The notes under the pieces are model-generated. The model did no database searches. It had not been told where the DNA came from and saw only the letters and a program-made list of their open reading frames with translations. Position numbers and translations under genes: made by a program. Below are positions 5,232 through 53,303 of a stretch of 64,000 bases of DNA, piece by piece (the stretch's first letter is position 1; every line of letters starts with the position of its first letter). Source of the stretch: an uncultured Muribaculaceae bacterium (GTDB lineage Bacteria > Bacillota_I > Bacilli_A > RF39 > UBA660); assembly GCA_964493665.1 (NCBI GenBank), contig CAZBOZ010000003.1, forward strand, positions 1,646 to 65,645. The letters are read 5' to 3'.

Positions 5232-5258
5232 TAAAAAACTGAATATTTTTTATTCAGT
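5232..5258 (-). terminator. intrinsic terminator after the noc-like gene (stem overlaps the stop codon)
   Basis: Minus strand reads ACTGAATA-AAAAA-TATTCAGT followed by TTTTT. The stop codon at 5250-5252 lies inside the hairpin. Confidence 0.5.
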
Positions 5259-6530
5259 CTTCTTATCTATTTTTATTATTATTTGATATAAATTTTCCAA
5301 GTCTATCTCTTCAGTATCAACTAATAAGCCTTTTTCTTCAATAATCTTTACTGTATCTCTTAGCATATTAATAGCACTTTTTAATGAAAACTCCTCCATT
5401 TTTTCTTCTTGAGGTTTTGGTGGAATATACGATGGATCTAAAGTTTCTATTTTAGAAACCGGATCAATCACATTGTCCATGCTTAATGGTACCGATGGAA
5501 GATCAAGAATTTCTACTTCTTTTTCCTCTTTAGGCTCTACTACTGGTATAGAACTTGGTCCAGCTATTGGCTTATCAAGAATATTCATATTAGCTTCTTC
5601 ATCCTCTAAAAAGTTAAAAAACTTGTTAGGGGTTGGTGGGGTCGAAGGGTTTGGCATGCCACTTGCAGGAGCACTTGGAATGTCTGGTATGGCATTTAAG
5701 TTTGGCTCTTCAACAACTGCCTCTGAGACATCTGGTATTAATGGTTCCTCTTTTACTATTGGTTGTTCTGGAATAATAGGATTATTTGGCATTTGTCCTT
5801 CCGTTCTAAGCATTTGTTCTATTCCTAAAGTTTCTTTTTTAGGAGACAAATCTAATGCCGAATTTTTAATTTGATCAACACTAGGAGTTATTTCGACCAA
5901 AGGGGTATTATCCATTTTTTGGTCGTCTGATATTAAACTTTTTATTTCATCATCAAGTTGCCTAACAGTCCATCTTCCCTCTATTACTTTTCTTAATAAT
6001 TCTTTCTGTTTAGCAAAATCCTGGACTTTTAACATACTTCTAGCATGTCTTTCAGATATTTGTTCTTCTAACAAAGCTTTTTGAACTTCTTCGTCTAAAT
6101 TAAGTAGGCGTAGTCTGTTAGCAATAGTCGGCTGAGAAACCCCTATTCGCTTAGCTAGTTCTTCTTGGGTAACATAACCTCTATCCAGTAAAATCTTATA
6201 AGATTTTGCTTCTTCAATCGGAGTCAAAGACTTTCTTTGAACATTTTCAACTAAAGCAACTTCAGCACTACTGTTATCATCTAAACTAGTAATTATTGCT
6301 GGCACTTTTTGTAAACCTGCCATAATAGCAGCTTTATATCTTCTTTCGCCAGCTATTATTTCATACTTATTTCCGACTCTTCTTAAAACAAGCGGTTGTA
6401 TTATGCCGTGTTCTTTTATAGATGCAGCTAGTTCTTCCATAGCTTGCTCGTCAAATGTTAAACGTGGTTGAAACCTATTAGGAATTATTTCCTCGATTCC
6501 AATCTCCATTAATTGTGGCTCAAAATTCAT
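5250..6530 (-). CDS. noc: ParB/Spo0J/Noc-family DNA-binding protein, Noc-like (nucleoid occlusion), with a long Pro-rich internal linker
   Basis: Has the ParB box IIPNRFQPR, the GERRYKAA arginine patch and the HTH QEELAKRIGVSQPTIANRLRLLNL...ISERHARSML. It sits immediately downstream of rsmG, the noc position in B. subtilis. The PNRFQPR, Q-P-T-I-A-N, ERHAR and C-terminal ...LYQIIIKIDKK features resemble B. subtilis Noc rather than Spo0J, as I recall those sequences. Confidence 0.6.
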   Translation of the reverse strand: MNFEPQLMEIGIEEIIPNRFQPRLTFDEQAMEELAASIKEHGIIQPLVLRRVGNKYEIIAGERRYKAAIMAGLQKVPAIITSLDDNSSAEVALVENVQRKSLTPIEEAKSYKILLDRGYVTQEELAKRIGVSQPTIANRLRLLNLDEEVQKALLEEQISERHARSMLKVQDFAKQKELLRKVIEGRWTVRQLDDEIKSLISDDQKMDNTPLVEITPSVDQIKNSALDLSPKKETLGIEQMLRTEGQMPNNPIIPEQPIVKEEPLIPDVSEAVVEEPNLNAIPDIPSAPASGMPNPSTPPTPNKFFNFLEDEEANMNILDKPIAGPSSIPVVEPKEEKEVEILDLPSVPLSMDNVIDPVSKIETLDPSYIPPKPQEEKMEEFSLKSAINMLRDTVKIIEEKGLLVDTEEIDLENLYQIIIKIDKKTE

Positions 6531-10541: not shown

Positions 10542-10570
10542 ATTATAACACGAAATTATTTCCCGGGAAA
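10542..10570 (-). promoter_or_regulatory. candidate extended -10 promoter of the mnmE-mnmG-rsmG-noc gene string
   Basis: Minus strand reads TGTTATAAT (TGnTATAAT) with the -10 hexamer at 10542-10547. The -35 position (10565-10570, TTTCCC) is poor and falls inside the NBS palindrome. Confidence 0.4.
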
Positions 10571-10571
10571 T
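10558..10571. promoter_or_regulatory. Noc-binding-site-type palindrome ATTTCCCGGGAAAT (within the 22-nt palindrome 10554-10575)
   Basis: Exact match to the published B. subtilis NBS consensus ATTTCCCGGGAAAT. The flanks extend the palindrome to AATTATTTCCCGGGAAATAATT. Confidence 0.6.
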
Positions 10572-10589
10572 AATTATTTAAAAAGAAGA

Positions 10590-12508: not shown

Positions 12509-12806
12509 TGTTTATAACAATGTTAATAACTTTTAAATACTCTTTCATTATATATATAGCCTATTTATAAGTCAAGTTATGAACAGGATGTGGATAACTT
12601 ATAATTTATTTGTTAACAATGTTAATATAACTTTTGTTAATATTGTTGATAACTTTATTTTTTTGCGCTATTATAGTAACTAAATTTAAATTTTATTGTG
12701 AATAACCTGTTGATAATTATTTTTCTGTTTAATTGCTCTTCACTTTTAAATTTTATTAAGTTACAATTAAAACAAGTAGAAGACTGTGAGGTGATATTGT
12801 GGATAA
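12509..12806. promoter_or_regulatory. oriC left part / dnaA upstream DnaA-box cluster
   Basis: Two perfect TGTGGATAA boxes at 12589-12597 and 12798-12806; the second contains the dnaA GTG start. One-mismatch boxes at 12644-12652 (TGTTGATAA), 12697-12705 (TGTGAATAA) and 12708-12716 (TGTTGATAA). Two-mismatch boxes at 12509-12517 and 12521-12529. All are in the same orientation. Confidence 0.8.
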
Positions 12807-15437: not shown

Positions 15438-15519
15438 ATTTTAAAACTAAAATTCGCCATAAATCGTCTTTTAAAAATGCTTTAATAAAAGGCAAATTTA
15501 AAAGAAGGAGGTGGATTTG

Positions 15520-15969
15520 ATGAACGAATATGAAGTTAATTCTAAAACACTGGCGATTGTTTCATTGTCTTCTCAAAAATCAAAAATATACGAAGACTCT
15601 AATATATTTGTTGTTAATAAGTCAGCTACTAAGATAATGGAAGATAGCTGTCAATTTTTTGGAAGTTCTTTGTTGGGGCGTCAGAAGGGAACAAATAATT
15701 TAATAGGAGTTACCCATAAGGCTCCAATAATAGTAGAAGAAAGTAGAGAAATAATCTTTTTTCCGACTTTATCCCCAAGAAAAAACTCTTGTTCCTGGAT
15801 AGCTTTAAAGAATATTGCTAGTTATTATGACAAAGATCAGAATGTTTATATTAAATTTAAAAATAATGTTCAACTAGAATTAGACATTTCTTATGGAGTG
15901 GTAGACAATCAAGTTTTAAGAGCTACGAGATTAGAATCAGTATTAAGAAACAGAAAAATGGAAAAATAG
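15520..15969 (+). CDS. comK: ComK-family competence transcription factor homolog
   Basis: Start moved to the ATG 9 nt after the GGAGG RBS. Motifs shared with B. subtilis ComK as I recall it: YEVN..T.A, SC.FFGSS..GR..GT, HK.PI.V, FPT.S......W, ISY....NQV.R. Short at 149 aa. Confidence 0.7.
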   Translation: MNEYEVNSKTLAIVSLSSQKSKIYEDSNIFVVNKSATKIMEDSCQFFGSSLLGRQKGTNNLIGVTHKAPIIVEESREIIFFPTLSPRKNSCSWIALKNIASYYDKDQNVYIKFKNNVQLELDISYGVVDNQVLRATRLESVLRNRKMEK

Positions 15970-19085: not shown

Positions 19086-21503
19086 ATGGATAAACTACAA
19101 AATAGTAATATAGTTAAAGAAATGCAAAAATCATTTTTGGAATATTCTATGAGCGTTATTATATCAAGAGCTATTCCTGATTTAAGAGATGGTTTAAAAC
19201 CTGTTCATAGACGTATACTATATACTATGCTAGAATCTGGGTTTACTCCCGATAAAGGCTATGTAAAATGCGCTAAAACAGTTGGAGCCGTAATTGGTAA
19301 TTACCATCCTCATGGCGATACAGCAGTATATGATGCTATGGTTAGAATGGCTCAAGACTTTAGTTACCGTCATCCATTGATAGATGGTCACGGGAACTTT
19401 GGAGCTATAGATGGCAGTACTGCAGCTGCTTATCGTTATACAGAATCAAGAATATCTAAAATAGCTATGGAAATACTTAGAGATATAAACAAGAACACTG
19501 TTGATTTTGATGATAATTTCGACGCTACAAGAAAAGAACCTGCTGTTTTACCAAGTAGATTTCCTAATATTATAGTTAATGGGACTATGGGAATAGCTGT
19601 TGGTATGGCGACAAATATTCCTCCTCATAATTTGGGCGAAGTAATAGATGGCTGTGTGGCCTATATTGATAATCCGGAAATTGATACCCTGGGGTTAATG
19701 CAACACATAAAAGGCCCAGATTTTCCTACGGGAGGATCGATATTAGGTAATAGTGGTATTAAGAAAGCTTATGATACTGGCAAAGGGTCAATAACTATTA
19801 GAGGAAAAGTAAATACTATAGAAAAAAATGGCAGGTATGAGCTTGTCATAACTGAAGTACCTTATCAAGTAAATACAACCGCTCTGATAACTAAAATCGC
19901 TGAGTTAGTTAGAGATAAAATTATTGATGGCATCGCTGATCTTCGTGAAGAAACATCTTTTAAAGATGGCATGAAAATTGTGATAGAGCTAAAAAAAGAT
20001 GCTAATCCAGGAGTGGTATTAAATAATCTATATAAACATACCCAATTGCAATCTTCTTTTGGTATAAATATGTTGATGTTATACCAAGGGAAACCAGTTA
20101 CTTTGGGCTTAAAAGAGATTATTAGAAACTATATAGATTTCCAAAAAGAAGTTATTTATAGAAGAACCGAGTTTGATTTAGATAAAGCTATCAAAAGAGC
20201 CCATATTTTAGAGGGTTTAAAGATCGCTTTAGATCATATTGATGAGGTTATAAAGATAATAAAAGAAGCCAAAACTGATATTGTAGCTAAAGAAAAATTA
20301 ACTAGTAGATTCGGTTTAGATGATGCTCAAACCGAGGCAATATTAGAAATGAAGTTAAGAAAATTAACCGGTCTAGAAAAAGAAAAAGTAATAGAAGAGT
20401 TAGAGGCGTTGCTGAAACTTATTGATGAGTTAAAATCAATACTAGCAAGTGAAGCAAAAGTTCTAACGATAATAAAAGAAGAAATGTTAGAAATAAAGCA
20501 AAAGTATGCCAACGAAAGAAAGACTACCATTGATATGACATCTATTGAATATATTGAAGATGAATCTTTGATCCCTGAAGAAGAAATTATTATAACCTTA
20601 ACAAATAAAGGGTATATAAAAAGATTGGCTGCTGACGCTTATAAAACTCAAAATAGAGGCGGAGTTGGAGTGAAGGGCATAACCACTAACGAAGAGGACT
20701 TTGTAGAGCATCTAGTTAATCTCTCAACTCACGATTACCTATTGTGTTTTACTAATAAAGGCAAAGTATATCGACTAAAAGGATACGAGATTCCAGAATT
20801 TGGCAAGCAAGCCAAAGGTTTACCAATTGTAAATTTGCTGCAAATAGATAAAGACGAGTGCATAAACTCAATTATCAAGTTATCTAAAGATAACGATTAT
20901 AATTATTTGCTATTTGCTACCAAAAAAGGAATAGTAAAAAGAACAAAAATAGCTGATTTTGATAATATAAGAGCTACTGGCAAGATTTGCATTAGCTTAA
21001 AAGAGGCTGATGAACTAATTGCGGTGAGAAAAACAACTGGAACTGATGAAGTTTTGCTTGGATCATCTTTAGGCAGAATGGCTAAGTTTAACGAAAACGA
21101 TGTAAGAGTTATGGGTAGAACTGCCGGTGGAGTAAGGGGAATAAACCTAGGCCTAGCAGAATGTATAGGAGCGGAGGTTGCAAATAGCAAACAAAGCGTT
21201 CTAATAGTTACCCAAAATGGCTACGGGAAGAAAACTCCGGTCAGTGAGTATAGACTTTCTAAAAGAGGCAGCAAAGGAGTAAAAGCTTTAAGCATAACTG
21301 AAAAAAATGGTCCAATATCATCATTTAAAATAGTTAGAGAAGATGCTGATATTATGATTATAACTGATTTTGGAACTGTAATAAGGCTTCCGCTGGAGCA
21401 AATATCTGAACTAGGAAGAGTTACTCAAGGAGTAAGATTAATAAATTTAAAAGAAAATCAAAAAGTTTCCACAATTAGTATAGTTGATAAAACTGACGAA
21501 TAA
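19086..21503 (+). CDS. gyrA: DNA gyrase subunit A
   Basis: QRDR region ([13 protein letters not shown]), active-site AAYRYTE and C-terminal beta-pinwheel repeats. 805 aa. Confidence 0.97.
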
Positions 21504-21505
21504 TT

Positions 21506-21538
21506 AAAACAATGTTTCACGTGAAACATTGTTTTTTT
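21506..21538 (+). terminator. gyrA terminator hairpin formed by the 30-nt perfect palindrome that contains parS-1
   Basis: AAAACAATGTTTCAC|GTGAAACATTGTTTT is followed by further T residues and begins 3 nt after the gyrA stop. Confidence 0.6.
21513..21528. promoter_or_regulatory. parS site 1 (TGTTTCACGTGAAACA)
   Basis: Perfect 16-bp palindromic match to the Firmicute parS consensus TGTTNCACGTGAAACA. Confidence 0.8.
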
Positions 21539-21549
21539 GTTCGCAAATT

Positions 21550-21563
21550 ATTTCCCGGGAAAT
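21550..21563. promoter_or_regulatory. Noc-binding-site-type palindrome ATTTCCCGGGAAAT (within the 24-nt palindrome 21545-21568)
   Basis: Exact NBS consensus. The same extended core AATTATTTCCCGGGAAATAATT occurs at 10554-10575. Confidence 0.6.
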
Positions 21564-21572
21564 AATTTCTAA

Positions 21573-21588
21573 TGTTTCACGTGAAACA
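21573..21588. promoter_or_regulatory. parS site 2 (TGTTTCACGTGAAACA)
   Basis: Perfect 16-bp match to the parS consensus. Confidence 0.8.
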
Positions 21589-21735
21589 TAACAATTAAAA
21601 AACACATAAATATCGCTATTTCACTTTTTAAAAATTAAAGATTAAATGAGCCACAATTAAATAATTGTATTTAACGCAATTGAAAACTAATAAAAATGTT
21701 TTGAGTTTTGTATAGATGACAAATTATTAAAACAA

Positions 21736-21751
21736 TGTTTCACGTGAAACA
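21736..21751. promoter_or_regulatory. parS site 3 (TGTTTCACGTGAAACA)
   Basis: Perfect 16-bp match. The 31-nt block ATTAAAACAATGTTTCACGTGAAACATTGTT (21726-21756) is identical to 21503-21533. Confidence 0.8.
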
Positions 21752-21754
21752 TTG

Positions 21755-21783
21755 TTGCTAAAAAAACATATAAATGATATTAT
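21755..21783 (+). promoter_or_regulatory. candidate sigma-A promoter of the SRP RNA (TTGCTA-17-TATTAT)
   Basis: -35 at 21755-21760 and -10 at 21778-21783. The RNA 5-prime helix begins about 7 nt downstream. The -35 abuts parS-3. Confidence 0.5.
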
Positions 21784-21789
21784 CTTTTT

Positions 21790-21860
21790 GTGCAACAAGC
21801 CCAGTAGCAATTGGTCAGAATCGGAAGATGGCAGCCAAACTATTTAAAGCTTGTGTGCAC
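21790..21860 (+). ncRNA. ffs: small (4.5S-type) signal recognition particle RNA
   Basis: GGUCAG-AAUC-GGAA-GAUG-GCAGCC matches the universally conserved SRP helix 8 (E. coli GGUCAG-GUCC-GGAA-GGAA-GCAGCC), including the GGAA tetraloop. The terminal helix GUGCA.CAAGC / GCUUG..UGCAC closes the molecule and a T7 run follows. The position near tadA and dnaX resembles the B. subtilis scr locus. Ends are approximate. Confidence 0.85.
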
Positions 21861-21878
21861 TTTTTTTAAGGAGAAACA

Positions 21879-22304
21879 ATGAATAATAGATTTTTTAATG
21901 ATGCTTTGAATGAATCTTTTAAAGCCGAAAAAAAACAAAGTGTTCCAGTAGGAGCAGTGTTAGTAAAAAATAATAAAATAATTTCTAGGGCTCATAATAT
22001 AAACTATAAGTCAAATATGGTAATTGATCATGCCGAAATAATATGTATTAAAAAGGCCGTTAAAAAAAGCAATGATTGGCGATTAGATGATTTTGATATG
22101 TATGTTACATTAGAACCATGTGATATGTGCAAAGAGGTGATAAAGGCTTCAAGAATTAAAAATGTTTTTTATCTTTTACCAAAAAATAGTAAAGTTTGCA
22201 AACAGCAAACAAAATTTATTAAAGCTATAAACGTTACTGATGTTGATACTAAGCTGGGAGAAAATAAACTAAAAAGTTTTTTTAAAAAGCTAAGACAGAA
22301 ATAA
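21879..22304 (+). CDS. tadA: tRNA-specific adenosine deaminase
   Basis: CDA zinc motifs HAE (DHAEIICI) and PCxxC (EPCDMC). 141 aa. Confidence 0.85.
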   Translation: MNNRFFNDALNESFKAEKKQSVPVGAVLVKNNKIISRAHNINYKSNMVIDHAEIICIKKAVKKSNDWRLDDFDMYVTLEPCDMCKEVIKASRIKNVFYLLPKNSKVCKQQTKFIKAINVTDVDTKLGENKLKSFFKKLRQK

Positions 22305-22337
22305 AAAATATGCTATAATAAATATGTAGGTGGGAGC

Positions 22338-23939
22338 ATGGAATATAAAGTTTTATACAGAAAATATCGTCCAACAAATTTTGATCAAATAGTTGGGCAA
22401 GATTATATAATAAACATTTTAAAAAAAGCTGTTGTAAATAATAAGCTTTCACATGCCTATCTTTTTTCTGGCCCTAGAGGAACGGGAAAAACTAGTACTG
22501 CTAAAGTTTTTGCTAAAGCTATTAATTGCGAAGACAATAATTTAGGGAATCCCTGTGATAAGTGCCCTTCTTGTGTAGAATTTGATGGAAGTCCCGATAT
22601 TATTGAAATAGATGCCGCTTCTAATAATGGAGTAGATGAAATAAGGGAATTAAGAAATAATGTTAAACTAGTTCCAGCTTTATCAAAATATAAAGTTTAT
22701 ATAATAGATGAAGTTCACATGTTGTCAATTGGTGCTTTTAACGCCCTTTTAAAAACACTAGAAGAGCCTCCTGCACATGTTATTTTTATTTTAGCTACCA
22801 CTGATGCTCAAAAAATTCCTGTAACAGTAATTTCTAGATGTCAAAGATTTGATTTTCATCAGTTAAGTTCTGATGTAATATCAAATTATTTGCTAGATAT
22901 TTGCCAAGCCGAAGGAATAAAGGCTTCAAAAGAGGCAACTGACGAAATAGCTTATTTAAGTGATGGAGCAATGAGAGATGCTCTAGGACTATTAGATCAA
23001 ATATTAAGTGTTGTTAACAAGGAGTTGAAAACAGTTGATGTCGAAAAAATAATAAAAACTGTTTCTAAGCAAAAATTAGAAGAATTGTATTTAGCAATTG
23101 AAAGCAACGACGCCGAAAAAACATCTAAAATTGTTAATGACTTGGCAAACAGCGGTTATGATTTTACATCTTTTGTTAATAAATTGGTAAAATTTTTAAG
23201 AGATAAAGCAATTTTAGTAAAACAAAACAAAAATAACAGTCAAATGCCCTTTACAAAAATTAAAAATTTGATATTTAATTTAAATAAGATATTATATAAT
23301 AGCAAAACAGAAATAAGCCCCTATTTATTGGCTGAAATAGAATTGTTAGACAATATAGATACTAAAGATACTTTAATAGAAAATAATTCTTTTAAAGAAA
23401 TTCCTTCATCCAACTTAATGGTTGAAAACCCGATTGATTCGAGAGAGCCAGTCAAGCTTAAAAAAGCAGAAAAAGGATTAGATAAAGATTTTAAAAGGAT
23501 TAGAATTAATAATTGTTTTGCTAAAGCCAGCAAAGAAAGGCTAAATGCTAGCAAAAAAAATTGGTTAGAATTTATAAATTATTTATCAGAGGAAAATCAT
23601 AAACTATATGGATTTGCTGTTGATAGTGATTTAGTAGCCGCATCTGATAATTATTTATTATTAAAGTGTAATAGTGAAAGTCAAACATCTTTATTTAATA
23701 AGAATGTTGAAAAAATTGAAAAAGAATATTTGAATTTTTTAAAAGAGGAATATTTAATGGCTTTGCTAACAGAAGAAGAGTGGAAAAATTATAAGAATAA
23801 GTATATTGATGATAAGAAAAAAAATATTACTTATGAAATAATTGAAGAAACAAAGCCCAAAACAAAAAATGTGGCTGAAAATAAATTAAGTAAGATTGCT
23901 TATAAAATATTTGACGAAAAAAATATTAAAGTAGAATGA
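22338..23939 (+). CDS. dnaX: DNA polymerase III subunit tau/gamma
   Basis: Begins YRKYRPTNFDQIVGQ. Walker A GPRGTGKTS, a zinc module (CDKCPSC) and an SRC motif (SRCQRFDF). Confidence 0.95.
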   Translation: MEYKVLYRKYRPTNFDQIVGQDYIINILKKAVVNNKLSHAYLFSGPRGTGKTSTAKVFAKAINCEDNNLGNPCDKCPSCVEFDGSPDIIEIDAASNNGVDEIRELRNNVKLVPALSKYKVYIIDEVHMLSIGAFNALLKTLEEPPAHVIFILATTDAQKIPVTVISRCQRFDFHQLSSDVISNYLLDICQAEGIKASKEATDEIAYLSDGAMRDALGLLDQILSVVNKELKTVDVEKIIKTVSKQKLEELYLAIESNDAEKTSKIVNDLANSGYDFTSFVNKLVKFLRDKAILVKQNKNNSQMPFTKIKNLIFNLNKILYNSKTEISPYLLAEIELLDNIDTKDTLIENNSFKEIPSSNLMVENPIDSREPVKLKKAEKGLDKDFKRIRINNCFAKASKERLNASKKNWLEFINYLSEENHKLYGFAVDSDLVAASDNYLLLKCNSESQTSLFNKNVEKIEKEYLNFLKEEYLMALLTEEEWKNYKNKYIDDKKKNITYEIIEETKPKTKNVAENKLSKIAYKIFDEKNIKVE

Positions 23940-49943: not shown

Positions 49944-52900
49944 ATGAGAAGAAAAGTTTGGAATCTGGTATGTATTTTAGGATTTACAGTTTTAGCCTGT
50001 GGCCTTTACCTTTTCGCAGGTAATAATTTACCACAAAGTTGGGCAATGACTGATGGCGGCTGTGGTGGTTATTATTCTTATCCGCCTAGATGTAGCGAAG
50101 GATATTATTCTTCAACGCTATATTATAATGGTAGAACTTGCTACAGAGCTTGTACTAAAAAGCCAACATCGGGAAGCGGCTGTGGCAGTTATTATTCTTA
50201 TCCTCCTAGATGTAGCGAAGGCTATTCTTCATCTTCGGTAACATATAATGGTTTAACTTGTTACACAGCGTGTACTAAAACGGCAACGGCCGGATGTGGC
50301 AGTTATTATTCTTATCCTCCTAGATGTAGCGAAGGGTATAGTACAGAAACAGTTGCTTACGGCGGAAGAATTTGCTATACAGCATGTGCAAAAAAAACAA
50401 TACCTACGAATACATCAGACTTTTGTGAACACGGCTATGCTTTCAGCACACTAGATTCGGCGTCAGCTTTTTGTAGTGAATTAGGATATTTAGACTATGC
50501 ACAAATAAGTGTGACTACAAGCGGGAAATATTGTGTTTCTTGTACGGGATCGAGTTCTACTTGTCAAAGTGTTTATGGCGAGTTAGATGATCAAGCAGCA
50601 GCTATTGAAAAATGTGGTGGAGCCAAATACGTATCTATAAATAAAAGGCAATTAACCCAATATAAACAAGCGACGTGTTATAGTTGTATTTCAAGGGACT
50701 TGCGTTATGAAGTTTTGAGATGCGAACCAGATACCGTTAATGCATGCGAAACCAAGGCTGCTTGTGAAGCTGTTGGTGGAAAATGGGATTCTGGCATTTG
50801 CAAAAAAAGCTATGAAACTTATTATGCTTTTTGTCAATCAAAAGGTTATACAAATGAAAGGCCAACTTGTCCGGATGGATATGATTATGATTATATTTCA
50901 GATAAAGCGTTTGATAGTGAAGGCGAAACGTATGTTTGGGTTTGCTACTCTCAATGTAAATGGCGAGAAAGAAATTCTGATGATGACTTCTGTGAAAAAT
51001 ATGGATTGTTAGCAGATAGACCTCAATGTGACGACGGATACTATTCTGCTGGTAGTAGCTTTTTAATACCAGACGATGATAGTTATCATAAGGGTATGTG
51101 CTTTACTCCATGTACTAAAGCTGATGGTGAATTAGATGTCGAACTTAAATACATTATAACTTCCGAATATGAGGATATGCTCGCTTTTGTAAAAATTTAT
51201 ACTAAAGCTGGATGGCGTTATAAAATATTAACAGATCCGGTTACTCCCGATGAAATTTCAGATGAAGGATGGAAATCGGGGAATAGTGAAAATGAGATGA
51301 CACTTAGTGTTGATTCGGACGATGGAACCGTTTACATATATAATCAAACGCCAGAGGGAGACGTGTATTTAAGTGGGGACATAGCAATAATAGTTCCTGC
51401 GAGCAATGCTATTAAAGGAATAGTTACATCATATGATGTTGGGTCCGAAATTTTAGCAAAGTATTATAGTGGCGAATCAATGACTTTGGAAGAAATATAT
51501 GAATTGGCTGGTTATAACATTATGGAGCCAAATTCTTCAAGAAGGTATTCGGTAAAATCGGGAATAGTTAGTTTGGGATTATCAAATCAACATACAATAC
51601 TAAAATTAGAAAATACATCTGAAAAAACATTGACGGTTGATCCTGATACGGGGCTATTGTTATATACATTGACTGATGCAGAAAAAGCCGCTTTAGGAAT
51701 AACTACTGAGAAAGTTTATGTTGTGGCATCTAAACCAGAAGCAAGACTATCTCGAAATGATGATGGCACATTTGTGAAAGATTCAGAAGGAGATGTTGTT
51801 GCAGCCGCTAAAAATGAATTAGGAACATTATATAAAATTATGCCCACAGATCTTATACCTACAATGAAAGAAACAGTTTTCTATGCTATTAATTTAACTT
51901 ATCTAGAAGATGCTGATTATGCTGATCCTAATACTTGGAACGATTTAAAGCTATTAAGTTATAATAGTGAAGCAAGTATTGATACAGATTTTAGATTTGA
52001 AATAGTAAGAAATGGTTGGGATGATATAGTAAAACAAATAAGTAATTATAAAGAATCGTATGAAATAGTCCCACTAGCAAGTTCTACTACTGAAAACTTA
52101 GGAACCTTTTATGTCGATTTTGAATCAGACGTTAATCAGTATGAATTCTCGGTATATGCTGACCAAATAGCGTTAAATCCAGTTTTGGTTTATACGGATT
52201 CAGAATTTGTTGATGGCTACGGGCCAAGAACAGTAGATTTGGAATACGGTTTAAATGTTGAATATATAAAAGTTGAAAGTGCCAAAGGAAGTATTAGAAC
52301 TTACACATTATTAATAACAAGGTTGGATGATAGAAGTAGTGATAACACATTAAAATCACTAGTAGCTAGAGATGTTTCCTTAACTCCTTCCTTCGCAAGA
52401 TATACTAATGAATATTATGGAACGGTTGCAAATGATGTTTCAGAAGTAGAAATAGCTGCTGAAAAAAATGATAGTAGCGCAACATTTGTAGAAGGTTATG
52501 GATCTAGAACAGAAGAATTAAAAGTAGGCGAAAACACTATTTTAGTAAAAGTTAAAAGTGAAACTGGATCTGAAAGAATATATAAAGTCATAATAACCAG
52601 AGCAGGAACTCCAGAACCAGTAGTGGTCGATGAAACAAAGAGTTCTAACAATGATTTAAGTGAAGTTACTATTAGTTCAGGCAACTTAATGTTTGAGCCA
52701 GATGTAACAGATTATAACTTATATGTATCAAACGATATTACGAGTATCCTAGTAACTCCAACGGCAGATGATGAAAATGCGACAGTTGAAATAATTGGTG
52801 GAGATGATTTACAAATTGGTTCAAATAAAATTGAAACAATAGTAACTGCCGAAAGCGGCGAAACCCAAACATACACAATAAACGTAATAAGAAAAGAAGC

Positions 52901-53303
52901 TGGCTATGCAATTTCGACAGATTCAACTTTAAGTACATTAAATATAGCAGGTGAAAAAATATCATTTGATCCATTAAACTACTTGTATAATGTTGTTATA
53001 TTCTCTGGAACAGAAGAATTAGCATTTGACTTAGCGGCGTCAAACAGCAATGCCCAAATAGAAGTTATTGGCAACATGGAATTGTCTGACTTTACTACCG
53101 TAAAAATAAAAGTTATTGCAGAGGATGGCAGTTACTCAATATATGATATTAATGTAAGAGTAGAAACCATTACAATTGGTGAAATAATTGCGTTCGTAGT
53201 TTGCTCAATCTTAGTTACTGGCTTAATAGTATATGGAACGATAACTAGAAACAGAAAACAAAAAGAATTAAAATTAAAAGAAAAAGAAGATCTTATAAAT
53301 TAA
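49944..53303 (+). CDS. large membrane-anchored surface protein: N-terminal Cys-rich repeat region plus four C-terminal cadherin-like beta-sandwich domains
   Basis: 1119 aa with an N-terminal signal/TM. There are 32 Cys between residues 40 and about 392, including 3 tandem CG.YYSYPPRCSEGY...CY.AC.K units. The C-terminal part has repeats of the L..L.....L.P.F......Y...V...........A.......V.......L..G.N.I...V.AE.G....Y.I.V.R type. A C-terminal TM is followed by a basic tail (TRNRKQKELKLKEKE). Confidence 0.8.
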   Translation: MRRKVWNLVCILGFTVLACGLYLFAGNNLPQSWAMTDGGCGGYYSYPPRCSEGYYSSTLYYNGRTCYRACTKKPTSGSGCGSYYSYPPRCSEGYSSSSVTYNGLTCYTACTKTATAGCGSYYSYPPRCSEGYSTETVAYGGRICYTACAKKTIPTNTSDFCEHGYAFSTLDSASAFCSELGYLDYAQISVTTSGKYCVSCTGSSSTCQSVYGELDDQAAAIEKCGGAKYVSINKRQLTQYKQATCYSCISRDLRYEVLRCEPDTVNACETKAACEAVGGKWDSGICKKSYETYYAFCQSKGYTNERPTCPDGYDYDYISDKAFDSEGETYVWVCYSQCKWRERNSDDDFCEKYGLLADRPQCDDGYYSAGSSFLIPDDDSYHKGMCFTPCTKADGELDVELKYIITSEYEDMLAFVKIYTKAGWRYKILTDPVTPDEISDEGWKSGNSENEMTLSVDSDDGTVYIYNQTPEGDVYLSGDIAIIVPASNAIKGIVTSYDVGSEILAKYYSGESMTLEEIYELAGYNIMEPNSSRRYSVKSGIVSLGLSNQHTILKLENTSEKTLTVDPDTGLLLYTLTDAEKAALGITTEKVYVVASKPEARLSRNDDGTFVKDSEGDVVAAAKNELGTLYKIMPTDLIPTMKETVFYAINLTYLEDADYADPNTWNDLKLLSYNSEASIDTDFRFEIVRNGWDDIVKQISNYKESYEIVPLASSTTENLGTFYVDFESDVNQYEFSVYADQIALNPVLVYTDSEFVDGYGPRTVDLEYGLNVEYIKVESAKGSIRTYTLLITRLDDRSSDNTLKSLVARDVSLTPSFARYTNEYYGTVANDVSEVEIAAEKNDSSATFVEGYGSRTEELKVGENTILVKVKSETGSERIYKVIITRAGTPEPVVVDETKSSNNDLSEVTISSGNLMFEPDVTDYNLYVSNDITSILVTPTADDENATVEIIGGDDLQIGSNKIETIVTAESGETQTYTINVIRKEAGYAISTDSTLSTLNIAGEKISFDPLNYLYNVVIFSGTEELAFDLAASNSNAQIEVIGNMELSDFTTVKIKVIAEDGSYSIYDINVRVETITIGEIIAFVVCSILVTGLIVYGTITRNRKQKELKLKEKEDLIN
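50058..50393 (+). repeat. in-frame tandem DNA repeat (three units, periods about 120 and 114 nt) encoding the CG.YYSYPPRCSEGY module
   Basis: Near-identical stretches GGCTGTGGCAGTTATTATTCTTATCCTCCTAGATGTAGCGAAGG start near 50058, 50178 and 50292. Confidence 0.85.

Follow-up and report, generated by a model that had tools for sequence, protein, structure and literature searches.

What loads onto the short non-coding spacer between gyrA and the gene for the small signal recognition particle (SRP) RNA, close to the replication origin of an uncultured bacterium? We examined this locus in a 64,000-nt stretch of contig CAZBOZ010000003.1 (assembly GCA_964493665.1; hereafter the window), for which a first reading of the letters, the original prediction, had proposed three perfect copies of the ParB-binding site parS in the spacer and a role as a loading hub for ParB (Spo0J) and SMC. 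We found that the three copies of the 16-mer TGTTTCACGTGAAACA are indeed perfect and are the sole matches in 64 kb (Table 1); no further match exists at up to two mismatches, where 0.01 would be expected by chance, and none was found across the window at up to three. The 16-bp palindrome matches the consensus TGTTNCACGTGAAACA to which it had been assigned and equals its symmetric form, which, together with the origin-proximal location, is common to this locus and the parS/Spo0J system of Bacillus subtilis. The spacer holds more than parS, however. Between parS-1 and parS-2, and overlooked by the earlier reader, lies the exact 16-bp Noc-binding site (NBS) of the Noc literature, TATTTCCCGGGAAATA (sequence as given in PMC7383237 and PMC8429893), the 16-bp form of the consensus palindrome ATTTCCCGGGAAAT, which is matched perfectly at 21549 and again at 10557. 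The two site types differ at two positions per half-site. In total, three perfect parS and one perfect NBS are packed into 240 bp, with the NBS starting 36 bp past the start of parS-1 and 24 bp ahead of that of parS-2, and outside the gyrA spacer the window has no parS or NBS other than the NBS at 10557-10572. We consider it reasonably probable that two paralogous ParB-family cytidine triphosphate (CTP) clamps load at the gyrA-SRP RNA spacer, which would serve them as a composite, centromere-like platform.

The arrangement of the spacer was borne out in several respects. As had been noted, parS-1 and parS-3 lie in identical 31-nt blocks (21503-21533 and 21726-21756), which we find to be part of a 40-nt direct repeat with 95% identity. 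Each of the four genomes with the block has it at a single locus, which argues against a dispersed repeat. The placement of parS-3 beside the promoter of the SRP RNA gene is plausible, with 3 nt between the end of parS-3 and the -35 element of the promoter-like TTGCTA-17-TG-n-TATTAT (21755-21783). Logan unitigs from a bioreactor metagenome recover the window spacer at consistent depth, and one unitig links both 31-nt blocks. Thus the sites, the blocks and the promoter, together with the independent metagenome unitigs, confirm the observation. The window's organism turned up in metagenomes from bioreactors, sludge, wastewater and biofilm (runs X1-X17, region 20900-22400), whereas the array-bearing relatives are for the most part metagenome-assembled genomes (MAGs) from animal or human gut.

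We then asked whether the mixture of sites is conserved. Seven related loci were found without using the NBS, four through the parS block (L001-L004) and three through DnaN (L005-L007), and each has 2-6 perfect parS just 3' of gyrA, with a perfect NBS inside the cluster in five of the seven. When species-representative genomes were scanned with the pattern NBS-N{5,35}-parS, at least 119 stretches matched, all from uncultured low-GC Bacilli-type MAGs. Among the matches listed, the MAGs are labelled as uncultured Bacilli, Erysipelotrichaceae, Mycoplasma, Tenericutes, Clostridium sp. CAG:710, Ca. Scybalousia and Ca. Onthousia, the last of which is placed by NCBI in Bacilli incertae sedis. The gene order gyrB-gyrA-[array]-tadA-dnaX-ybaB-recR is found at every matched locus with visible flanking genes, the SRP RNA gene immediately precedes tadA in all 17 relatives checked, and GyrA of the array loci is 55-77% identical to the GyrA of the window. 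The comparison of the spacer in relatives that had been suggested earlier therefore shows a multi-copy cluster at the same syntenic place in more than 100 related species, as expected of a centromere or ParB hub, with parS and NBS alternating. The arrays among the matches listed hold 2-14 sites each, with totals of 399 perfect parS and 293 perfect NBS. Across the loci listed, parS sites are found in only two places, the gyrA-tadA and the tadA-dnaX spacer, and just 1 of 391 falls within a gene. In the array-clade loci listed, NBS also occur inside the dnaX coding sequence (25 cases) and inside ybaB (3 cases; e.g. L012, L029). The restriction of parS to spacers, while NBS are also found in genes, fits two different systems. 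In the Noc system NBS are scattered over the chromosome with the exception of the terminus; outside the arrays studied here, the 64-kb window has one NBS, and none was found in ~42 kb of noc-gene regions of two relatives (L129 and L132).

Upon closer examination of array anatomy, the two site types are sharply separated. L001-L007 and the window together contain 31 parS, 14 NBS and one single-mismatch site, and hybrid sites (G1/C6 or A1/A6) were looked for in this set and none was found; two discrete classes without hybrids point to two specificities. Among the loci listed, neighbours lie at most 60 bp apart in 201 of 346 NBS-parS pairs and in 20 of 155 parS-parS pairs. NBS-parS distances peak at 25-26, 36 and 47-48 bp, with the top Fourier amplitude at ~11 bp (p < 0.001 versus a simple jittered null), and the window unit (36 + 24 bp) resembles that of its closest relative L005 (35 + 23 bp). 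The immediate flanks are also constrained: A/T flanks parS in 98% of cases, and the extended NBS keeps its AAAT-NBS-ATTT flanks at 74-88%. These figures bear on the idea that the two systems are independent and merely share intergenic space, the NBS having hitch-hiked in local duplications with no functional tie to parS. Local duplication does occur in the arrays, as in the 31-40-nt duplicated block of the window, copy number varies from 2 to 14 across species, and the gyrA-tadA spacer is among the few long non-coding stretches near oriC. Nevertheless, NBS are at least 50-fold denser in the arrays than in the rest of the window (1 per ~64 kb), the NBS-parS distances are phased at ~11 bp and much shorter than those of parS-parS pairs, and the association persists down to ~55% GyrA identity with arrangements that differ by species, so that we consider hitch-hiking quite improbable.

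Tight clustering of parS, in contrast, is not what sets this locus apart. In Caulobacter, Myxococcus, Corynebacterium and Mycobacterium, clustered parS near oriC or parB act as one centromere. As controls we used 119 parB-containing 8-kb tiles of other AT-rich bacteria, of which 35 contain parS; several have two parS within 40 bp, and two (L170, L175) have three within 250 bp, including a Clostridia MAG (L170) with three perfect parS within 136 bp. A tight parS cluster by itself is thus ordinary. When NBS-parS pairs were sought in the same 119 tiles, there were none, and a single NBS was found in 856 kb. The clusters of other bacteria consist only of parS, usually beside parAB, whereas the array studied here is mixed with NBS; in B. 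subtilis the parS sites are dispersed, whereas here they share one spacer. The literature searched describes neither the interleaving of parS and NBS in arrays nor a Noc without its membrane helix.

A further possibility is that the palindromes act mainly as nucleic-acid hairpins, whether as terminators, as insulators between gyrA and ffs, or as elements like repetitive extragenic palindromes. The proposal that parS-1 forms the gyrA terminator hairpin is plausible for this genome: the 30-nt perfect palindrome 21506-21535 is followed by the T-run TTTTTTTG, its RNA fold has -18.7 kcal/mol (z = -5.6), and a terminator scan scored it as terminator-like on both strands. In 103 relatives, the gyrA stop codon is followed by the first site after a median of 23 nt (parS in 59, NBS in 44), which would also suit a terminator. 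Yet an extended palindrome with a T-run just after gyrA is present in only 19 of the 103, so that the terminator role of parS-1 is local and not general. The hairpin of the NBS is weak (-5.9 kcal/mol, z = -1.3), the 16-mers equal two consensus sequences for protein binding that were established independently, exact sequence conservation is not needed for a hairpin, and no compensatory stem mutations were seen in the relatives, the cores being invariant. We regard a purely structural role as extremely improbable. In run X1, a 36-kb contig of a different organism carries a near-identical parS terminator palindrome.

If proteins read these sites, which are they? The window encodes one ParB-family protein, of 426 residues (5250-6530), which lies between rsmG and argS with no ParA gene adjacent. 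It has the domains ParB_N (PF02195) and HTH_ParB (PF17762), and its CTP motifs GERR and ENVQR align to Noc structures. In an AlphaFold model, the N-terminal and DNA-binding domains have a predicted local distance difference test score (pLDDT) of 85-95, followed by a disordered insert of ~170 residues (pLDDT < 50) and a Noc-like C-terminal domain. In the PDB, Noc (7ng0) matches it best with 196 bits, against 166 bits for Spo0J (6sdk), and the same ranking is seen when it is scored against Noc proteins of Bacillaceae (197-215 bits) and the ParB of the same genomes (154-168 bits). The NCBIfam noc model TIGR04285 is its best match with 280 bits, under the cut-off of 315, in a model that discriminates weakly, a genuine R/G ParB scoring 236 bits. 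More telling are the residues of the helix-turn-helix region. Jalal et al. 2020 (PMC7383237) report that specificity is set by four positions, with R173/T179/A184/G201 for parS and Q/K/K/R for NBS; Q173 reads adenine 1, R201 reads C6:G if residue 179 or 184 is basic, and glutamine is too short for the guanine of parS. Aligned to B. subtilis Noc and Spo0J, the window protein has Q-R-N-R at these positions, and so has Q173, R201 and a basic residue 179, the combination that the published rule assigns to an NBS reader. Among 240 homologues listed, Q173 and R201 are present in all 230 that are readable at the helix-turn-helix, the other 10 being truncated or unreadable. Judged by the published mutagenesis and structures, the protein should therefore read NBS and not parS. 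The supplement of Jalal et al. 2020 was searched for fitness values of QKNR or QRNR and lists none.

These residues bear on the original prediction of a Spo0J loading and SMC hub, taken here as a purely ParB hub with the rsmG-linked protein as the Spo0J that binds the three parS. Part of it stands, as the parS sites are perfect, conserved and origin-proximal. The protein also keeps ParB_N, HTH_ParB and its CTP motifs intact, lacks the membrane helix of Noc, and is the sole ParB-family gene seen near oriC. What finds no support is the identity of the reader and the purity of the sites: in place of the canonical ParB ortholog that had been expected, the only candidate in the window has Q-R-N-R as opposed to the R-T-A-G of ParB, the Noc state Q173/R201 is found in every readable homologue listed, Q173 is unable to contact the parS guanine according to published structures and mutagenesis, and conserved perfect NBS that match this very protein occupy the same spacer. 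We thus hold a pure ParB hub to be very unlikely. Beyond the Q/R residues, the protein differs from a canonical ParB/Spo0J in having neither the N-terminal LG(R/K)GL ParA-activating peptide nor a parA neighbour.

The protein is not a canonical Noc either, although its sequence is Noc-like in DNA recognition. In the Noc-NBS nucleoid occlusion system of B. subtilis and Staphylococcus aureus (Wu 2009; Adams 2015, PMC4331003; Pang 2017, PMC5540599; Jalal 2021, PMC8429893), an N-terminal amphipathic membrane-targeting helix of 10 residues is needed for nucleoid occlusion (PMC4331003, PMC8429893). The locus shares with that system the NBS core, a Noc-closest protein beside rsmG, the CTP motifs, Q173/R201 and the basic residue 179. 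It departs from it in the N-terminus, in the curated noc score, in position 184, which is N and not K, and in the long disordered insert with its conserved motif. The protein starts 16 residues ahead of the PNRFQPR motif, with just 5 upstream codons before a stop codon, so that it has neither the membrane-targeting helix nor helix alpha-2, as is the case in 120 of the 120 homologues listed; in this it resembles the engineered Noc N-delta-26. Within the insert, the motif NKFFNFLEDE (residues ~302-311; NKFFNFLEDEE in the window protein) is kept in 114 of the 120 homologues listed, with F304 and F305 invariant. It has no confident structure in the AlphaFold model and may serve to bind a partner. 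Judged by inspection, the acidic run after it and its little amphipathic length speak against the motif being a relocated membrane helix.

One orthologue departs from the rule. The rsmG-linked protein L178 (4369-6180, minus strand, CANRLQ010000012.1, uncultured Bacilli MAG Lapin-011__bin79) retains the scaffold of the family, namely PNRFQPR, the short N-terminus, the long linker and the Noc-like C-terminal domain, with 276 bits to the noc model. It has R173 (CGA) and G201 (GGA), each codon being one nucleotide from the Q/R codons of its relatives. This R/G state is found in none of its 120 closest homologues listed (61-87% identical), of which the 110 readable are all Q/R. Judged by sequence, L178 seems to have reverted naturally from residues of the Noc type to those of the ParB type, and we found no description of such a reversion in the literature searched. 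The changes fall on the same four positions as the variants of Jalal et al. 2020, in which the window protein would correspond to a QK(A)R-type NBS reader and L178 to RKAG, a laboratory variant that was promiscuous (PMC7383237). The natural proteins have a Noc scaffold, whereas those experiments used the scaffold of Caulobacter ParB.

How, then, might the spacer work? In the favoured reading, the perfect parS sites would nucleate a parS-specific ParB encoded outside the window, which, by analogy with Spo0J, would recruit SMC as it spreads; the expected action, as in B. subtilis, is CTP-gated loading of the clamp followed by spreading. The NBS between them would nucleate the rsmG-linked Noc-type protein. 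The centre-to-centre distances of ~25, 36 or 48 bp correspond to roughly n + 0.45 helical turns, and such phasing would fix the relative faces at which the two dimers load, both of which would then spread into shared DNA near the origin. Being helix-less and bearing the FF-x-FL acidic linker motif, the Noc-type protein is probably an origin-marking adaptor for a partner and not a membrane tether, and parS-1 may double as the gyrA terminator hairpin in this genome. Binding, CTP-dependent loading and SMC recruitment at the array are what we infer from sequence, as are the existence of a separate ParB and the functional coupling of the two clamps. The former draws on the two discrete, perfectly conserved site classes, which call for two readers, so that a parS-specific ParB should exist.

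Several points weigh against this two-clamp platform, most of them concerning that ParB. In the window, phmmer of the 5250-6530 protein against all open reading frames found only the protein itself and no second ParB-family gene. A search for a parS-type ParB among the open reading frames of each of the 128 related loci, ~1 Mb of array tiles in total, gave none. On long contigs, no parAB was found beside the noc-type gene, the order always being mnmG-rsmG-noc-type-(PBP)-argS; the soj-spo0J operon that follows rsmG-noc in B. subtilis is missing at this place, and the cognate ParB was not located. Nor was a ParB of the array clade present in a random sample of 120 AT-rich ParB-type helix-turn-helix matches from many phyla, a weak negative in that ParBs with LGLL escape the pattern; the sole 'Bacilli MAG' among them is the L178 protein. 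A bait search with Spiroplasma ParB returned canonical parA-parB operons in low-GC gut MAGs, in the context tilS-ftsH-x-parA-parB-mscS-DUF951-abgT-ychF-rpsF-ssb-rpsR, for which no marker gene or assembly shared with the array clade was found, and two further bait matches belong to different lineages. In addition, L011-L128 were chosen for at least one NBS-parS pair, which biases the frequencies drawn from them, the simple null of the periodicity test is a weak point, and for a Noc-type protein without its defining membrane helix any role is a guess. The gut-MAG ParBs (L255-L262, L265; proteins P0317-P0359; 25-29% GC, several from human-gut metagenome assemblies) are themselves unusual, with LGLL replacing the near-universal LRLL beside the recognition helix and no parS within 10 kb on either side of their parB.

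The same searches lend some weight to a single dual-specificity Noc-type protein that loads on parS and NBS alike, in a lineage with no separate ParB. None of the origin regions and array tiles examined contains a second ParB-family gene, the array clade is absent from the 120 sampled ParB-type matches, position 184 is N and not K in all family members, and the two single-nucleotide changes that give L178 its ParB-type residues indicate that the scaffold can serve parS. On the other hand, a relaxed reader would tolerate the hybrid sites that are missing between the two sharply discrete classes, variants with both specificities in the deep mutational scan mostly have T/S at 201 and parS binders have R173 invariant, and the switch in L178 would be needless if the Q/R form already bound parS. 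We find one dual-specificity protein unlikely. Returning to the composite platform, its extension to the whole lineage is a serious possibility that we put forward tentatively: an order-level lineage of uncultured Bacilli may use a two-clamp composite centromere, in which phased parS-NBS dyads would co-load ParB and a helix-less Noc paralogue at one locus near the origin. In a sharper variant of this centromere, canonical ParB may have been lost, with parS served by another reader or by specificity-toggling on the Noc scaffold, as L178 may illustrate.

Table 1. Coordinates of sites and genes in the 64,000-nt window.
Feature	Position	Strand	Remarks
ParB-family CTPase, Noc type, 426 aa	5250-6530	-	adjoins rsmG; Q-R-N-R; predicted NBS reader
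Second perfect NBS	10557-10572	no strand	mnmE-jag spacer, ~2 kb from DnaA-box cluster
DnaA-box cluster (oriC)	12589-12806	no strand	upstream of dnaA; reference for origin-proximal
gyrA	19086-21503	+	NF004043, 1157 bits; stop codon 9 nt ahead of parS-1
parS-1	21513-21528	no strand	perfect TGTTTCACGTGAAACA; centre of 30-nt perfect palindrome 21506-21535
NBS, perfect 16 bp, TATTTCCCGGGAAATA	21549-21564	no strand	widens to 24-nt palindrome 21545-21568
parS-2	21573-21588	no strand	perfect
parS-3	21736-21751	no strand	perfect; inside 31-nt block 21726-21756
Sigma-70-like promoter TTGCTA-17-(TG)n-TATTAT for SRP RNA gene	21755-21783	+	upstream of the Rfam match
Small SRP RNA gene (ffs)	21786-21866	+	Rfam match
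tadA-like deaminase	21879-22304	+	right edge of spacer; 75.2 bits, under curated cut-off 150

The wider surroundings of the spacer are those of an origin region. We observe the gene order prmC-prfA-rpoE-argS-[ParB-family]-rsmG-mnmG-mnmE-jag-yidC-rnpA, followed by DnaA boxes and by dnaA-dnaN-comK-like-recF-gyrB-gyrA. With DnaA boxes clustered at 12589-12806 and 14240, the spacer lies ~7-9 kb from oriC, in keeping with the ~9 kb first estimated. Two other genes of the window deserve mention. An open reading frame of the ComK family (15511-15969, plus strand; PF06338, 143 bits) is located between dnaN and recF, the place of yaaA in B. subtilis, and is found at the same position in the relatives L129 and L132. 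Upstream of the S10/spc ribosomal protein operon, an open reading frame of 1119 residues (49944-53303, plus strand) has a Cadherin-like beta-sandwich domain as its lone Pfam match.

The parS/ParB and NBS/Noc pairs are textbook paralogous systems that diverged against cross-talk and perform different jobs at different chromosomal places. That the two perfect site types are paired in phase at one locus across a large lineage implies selection for co-recruiting both clamps, and makes the array a natural test case for the sharing of DNA by two CTP-gated sliding clamps. The L178 orthologue is a natural counterpart of the laboratory specificity-switch experiments. For annotation, an rsmG-linked 'ParB/RepB/Spo0J family partition protein' in MAGs with such arrays is not to be presumed a parS-binding Spo0J. 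The locus also raises the question of what job Noc performs without its membrane anchor, and the linker motif could point to a new partner protein. If the two-clamp centromere is true, a protein known only as a regulator of division or replication would now be part of a centromere.

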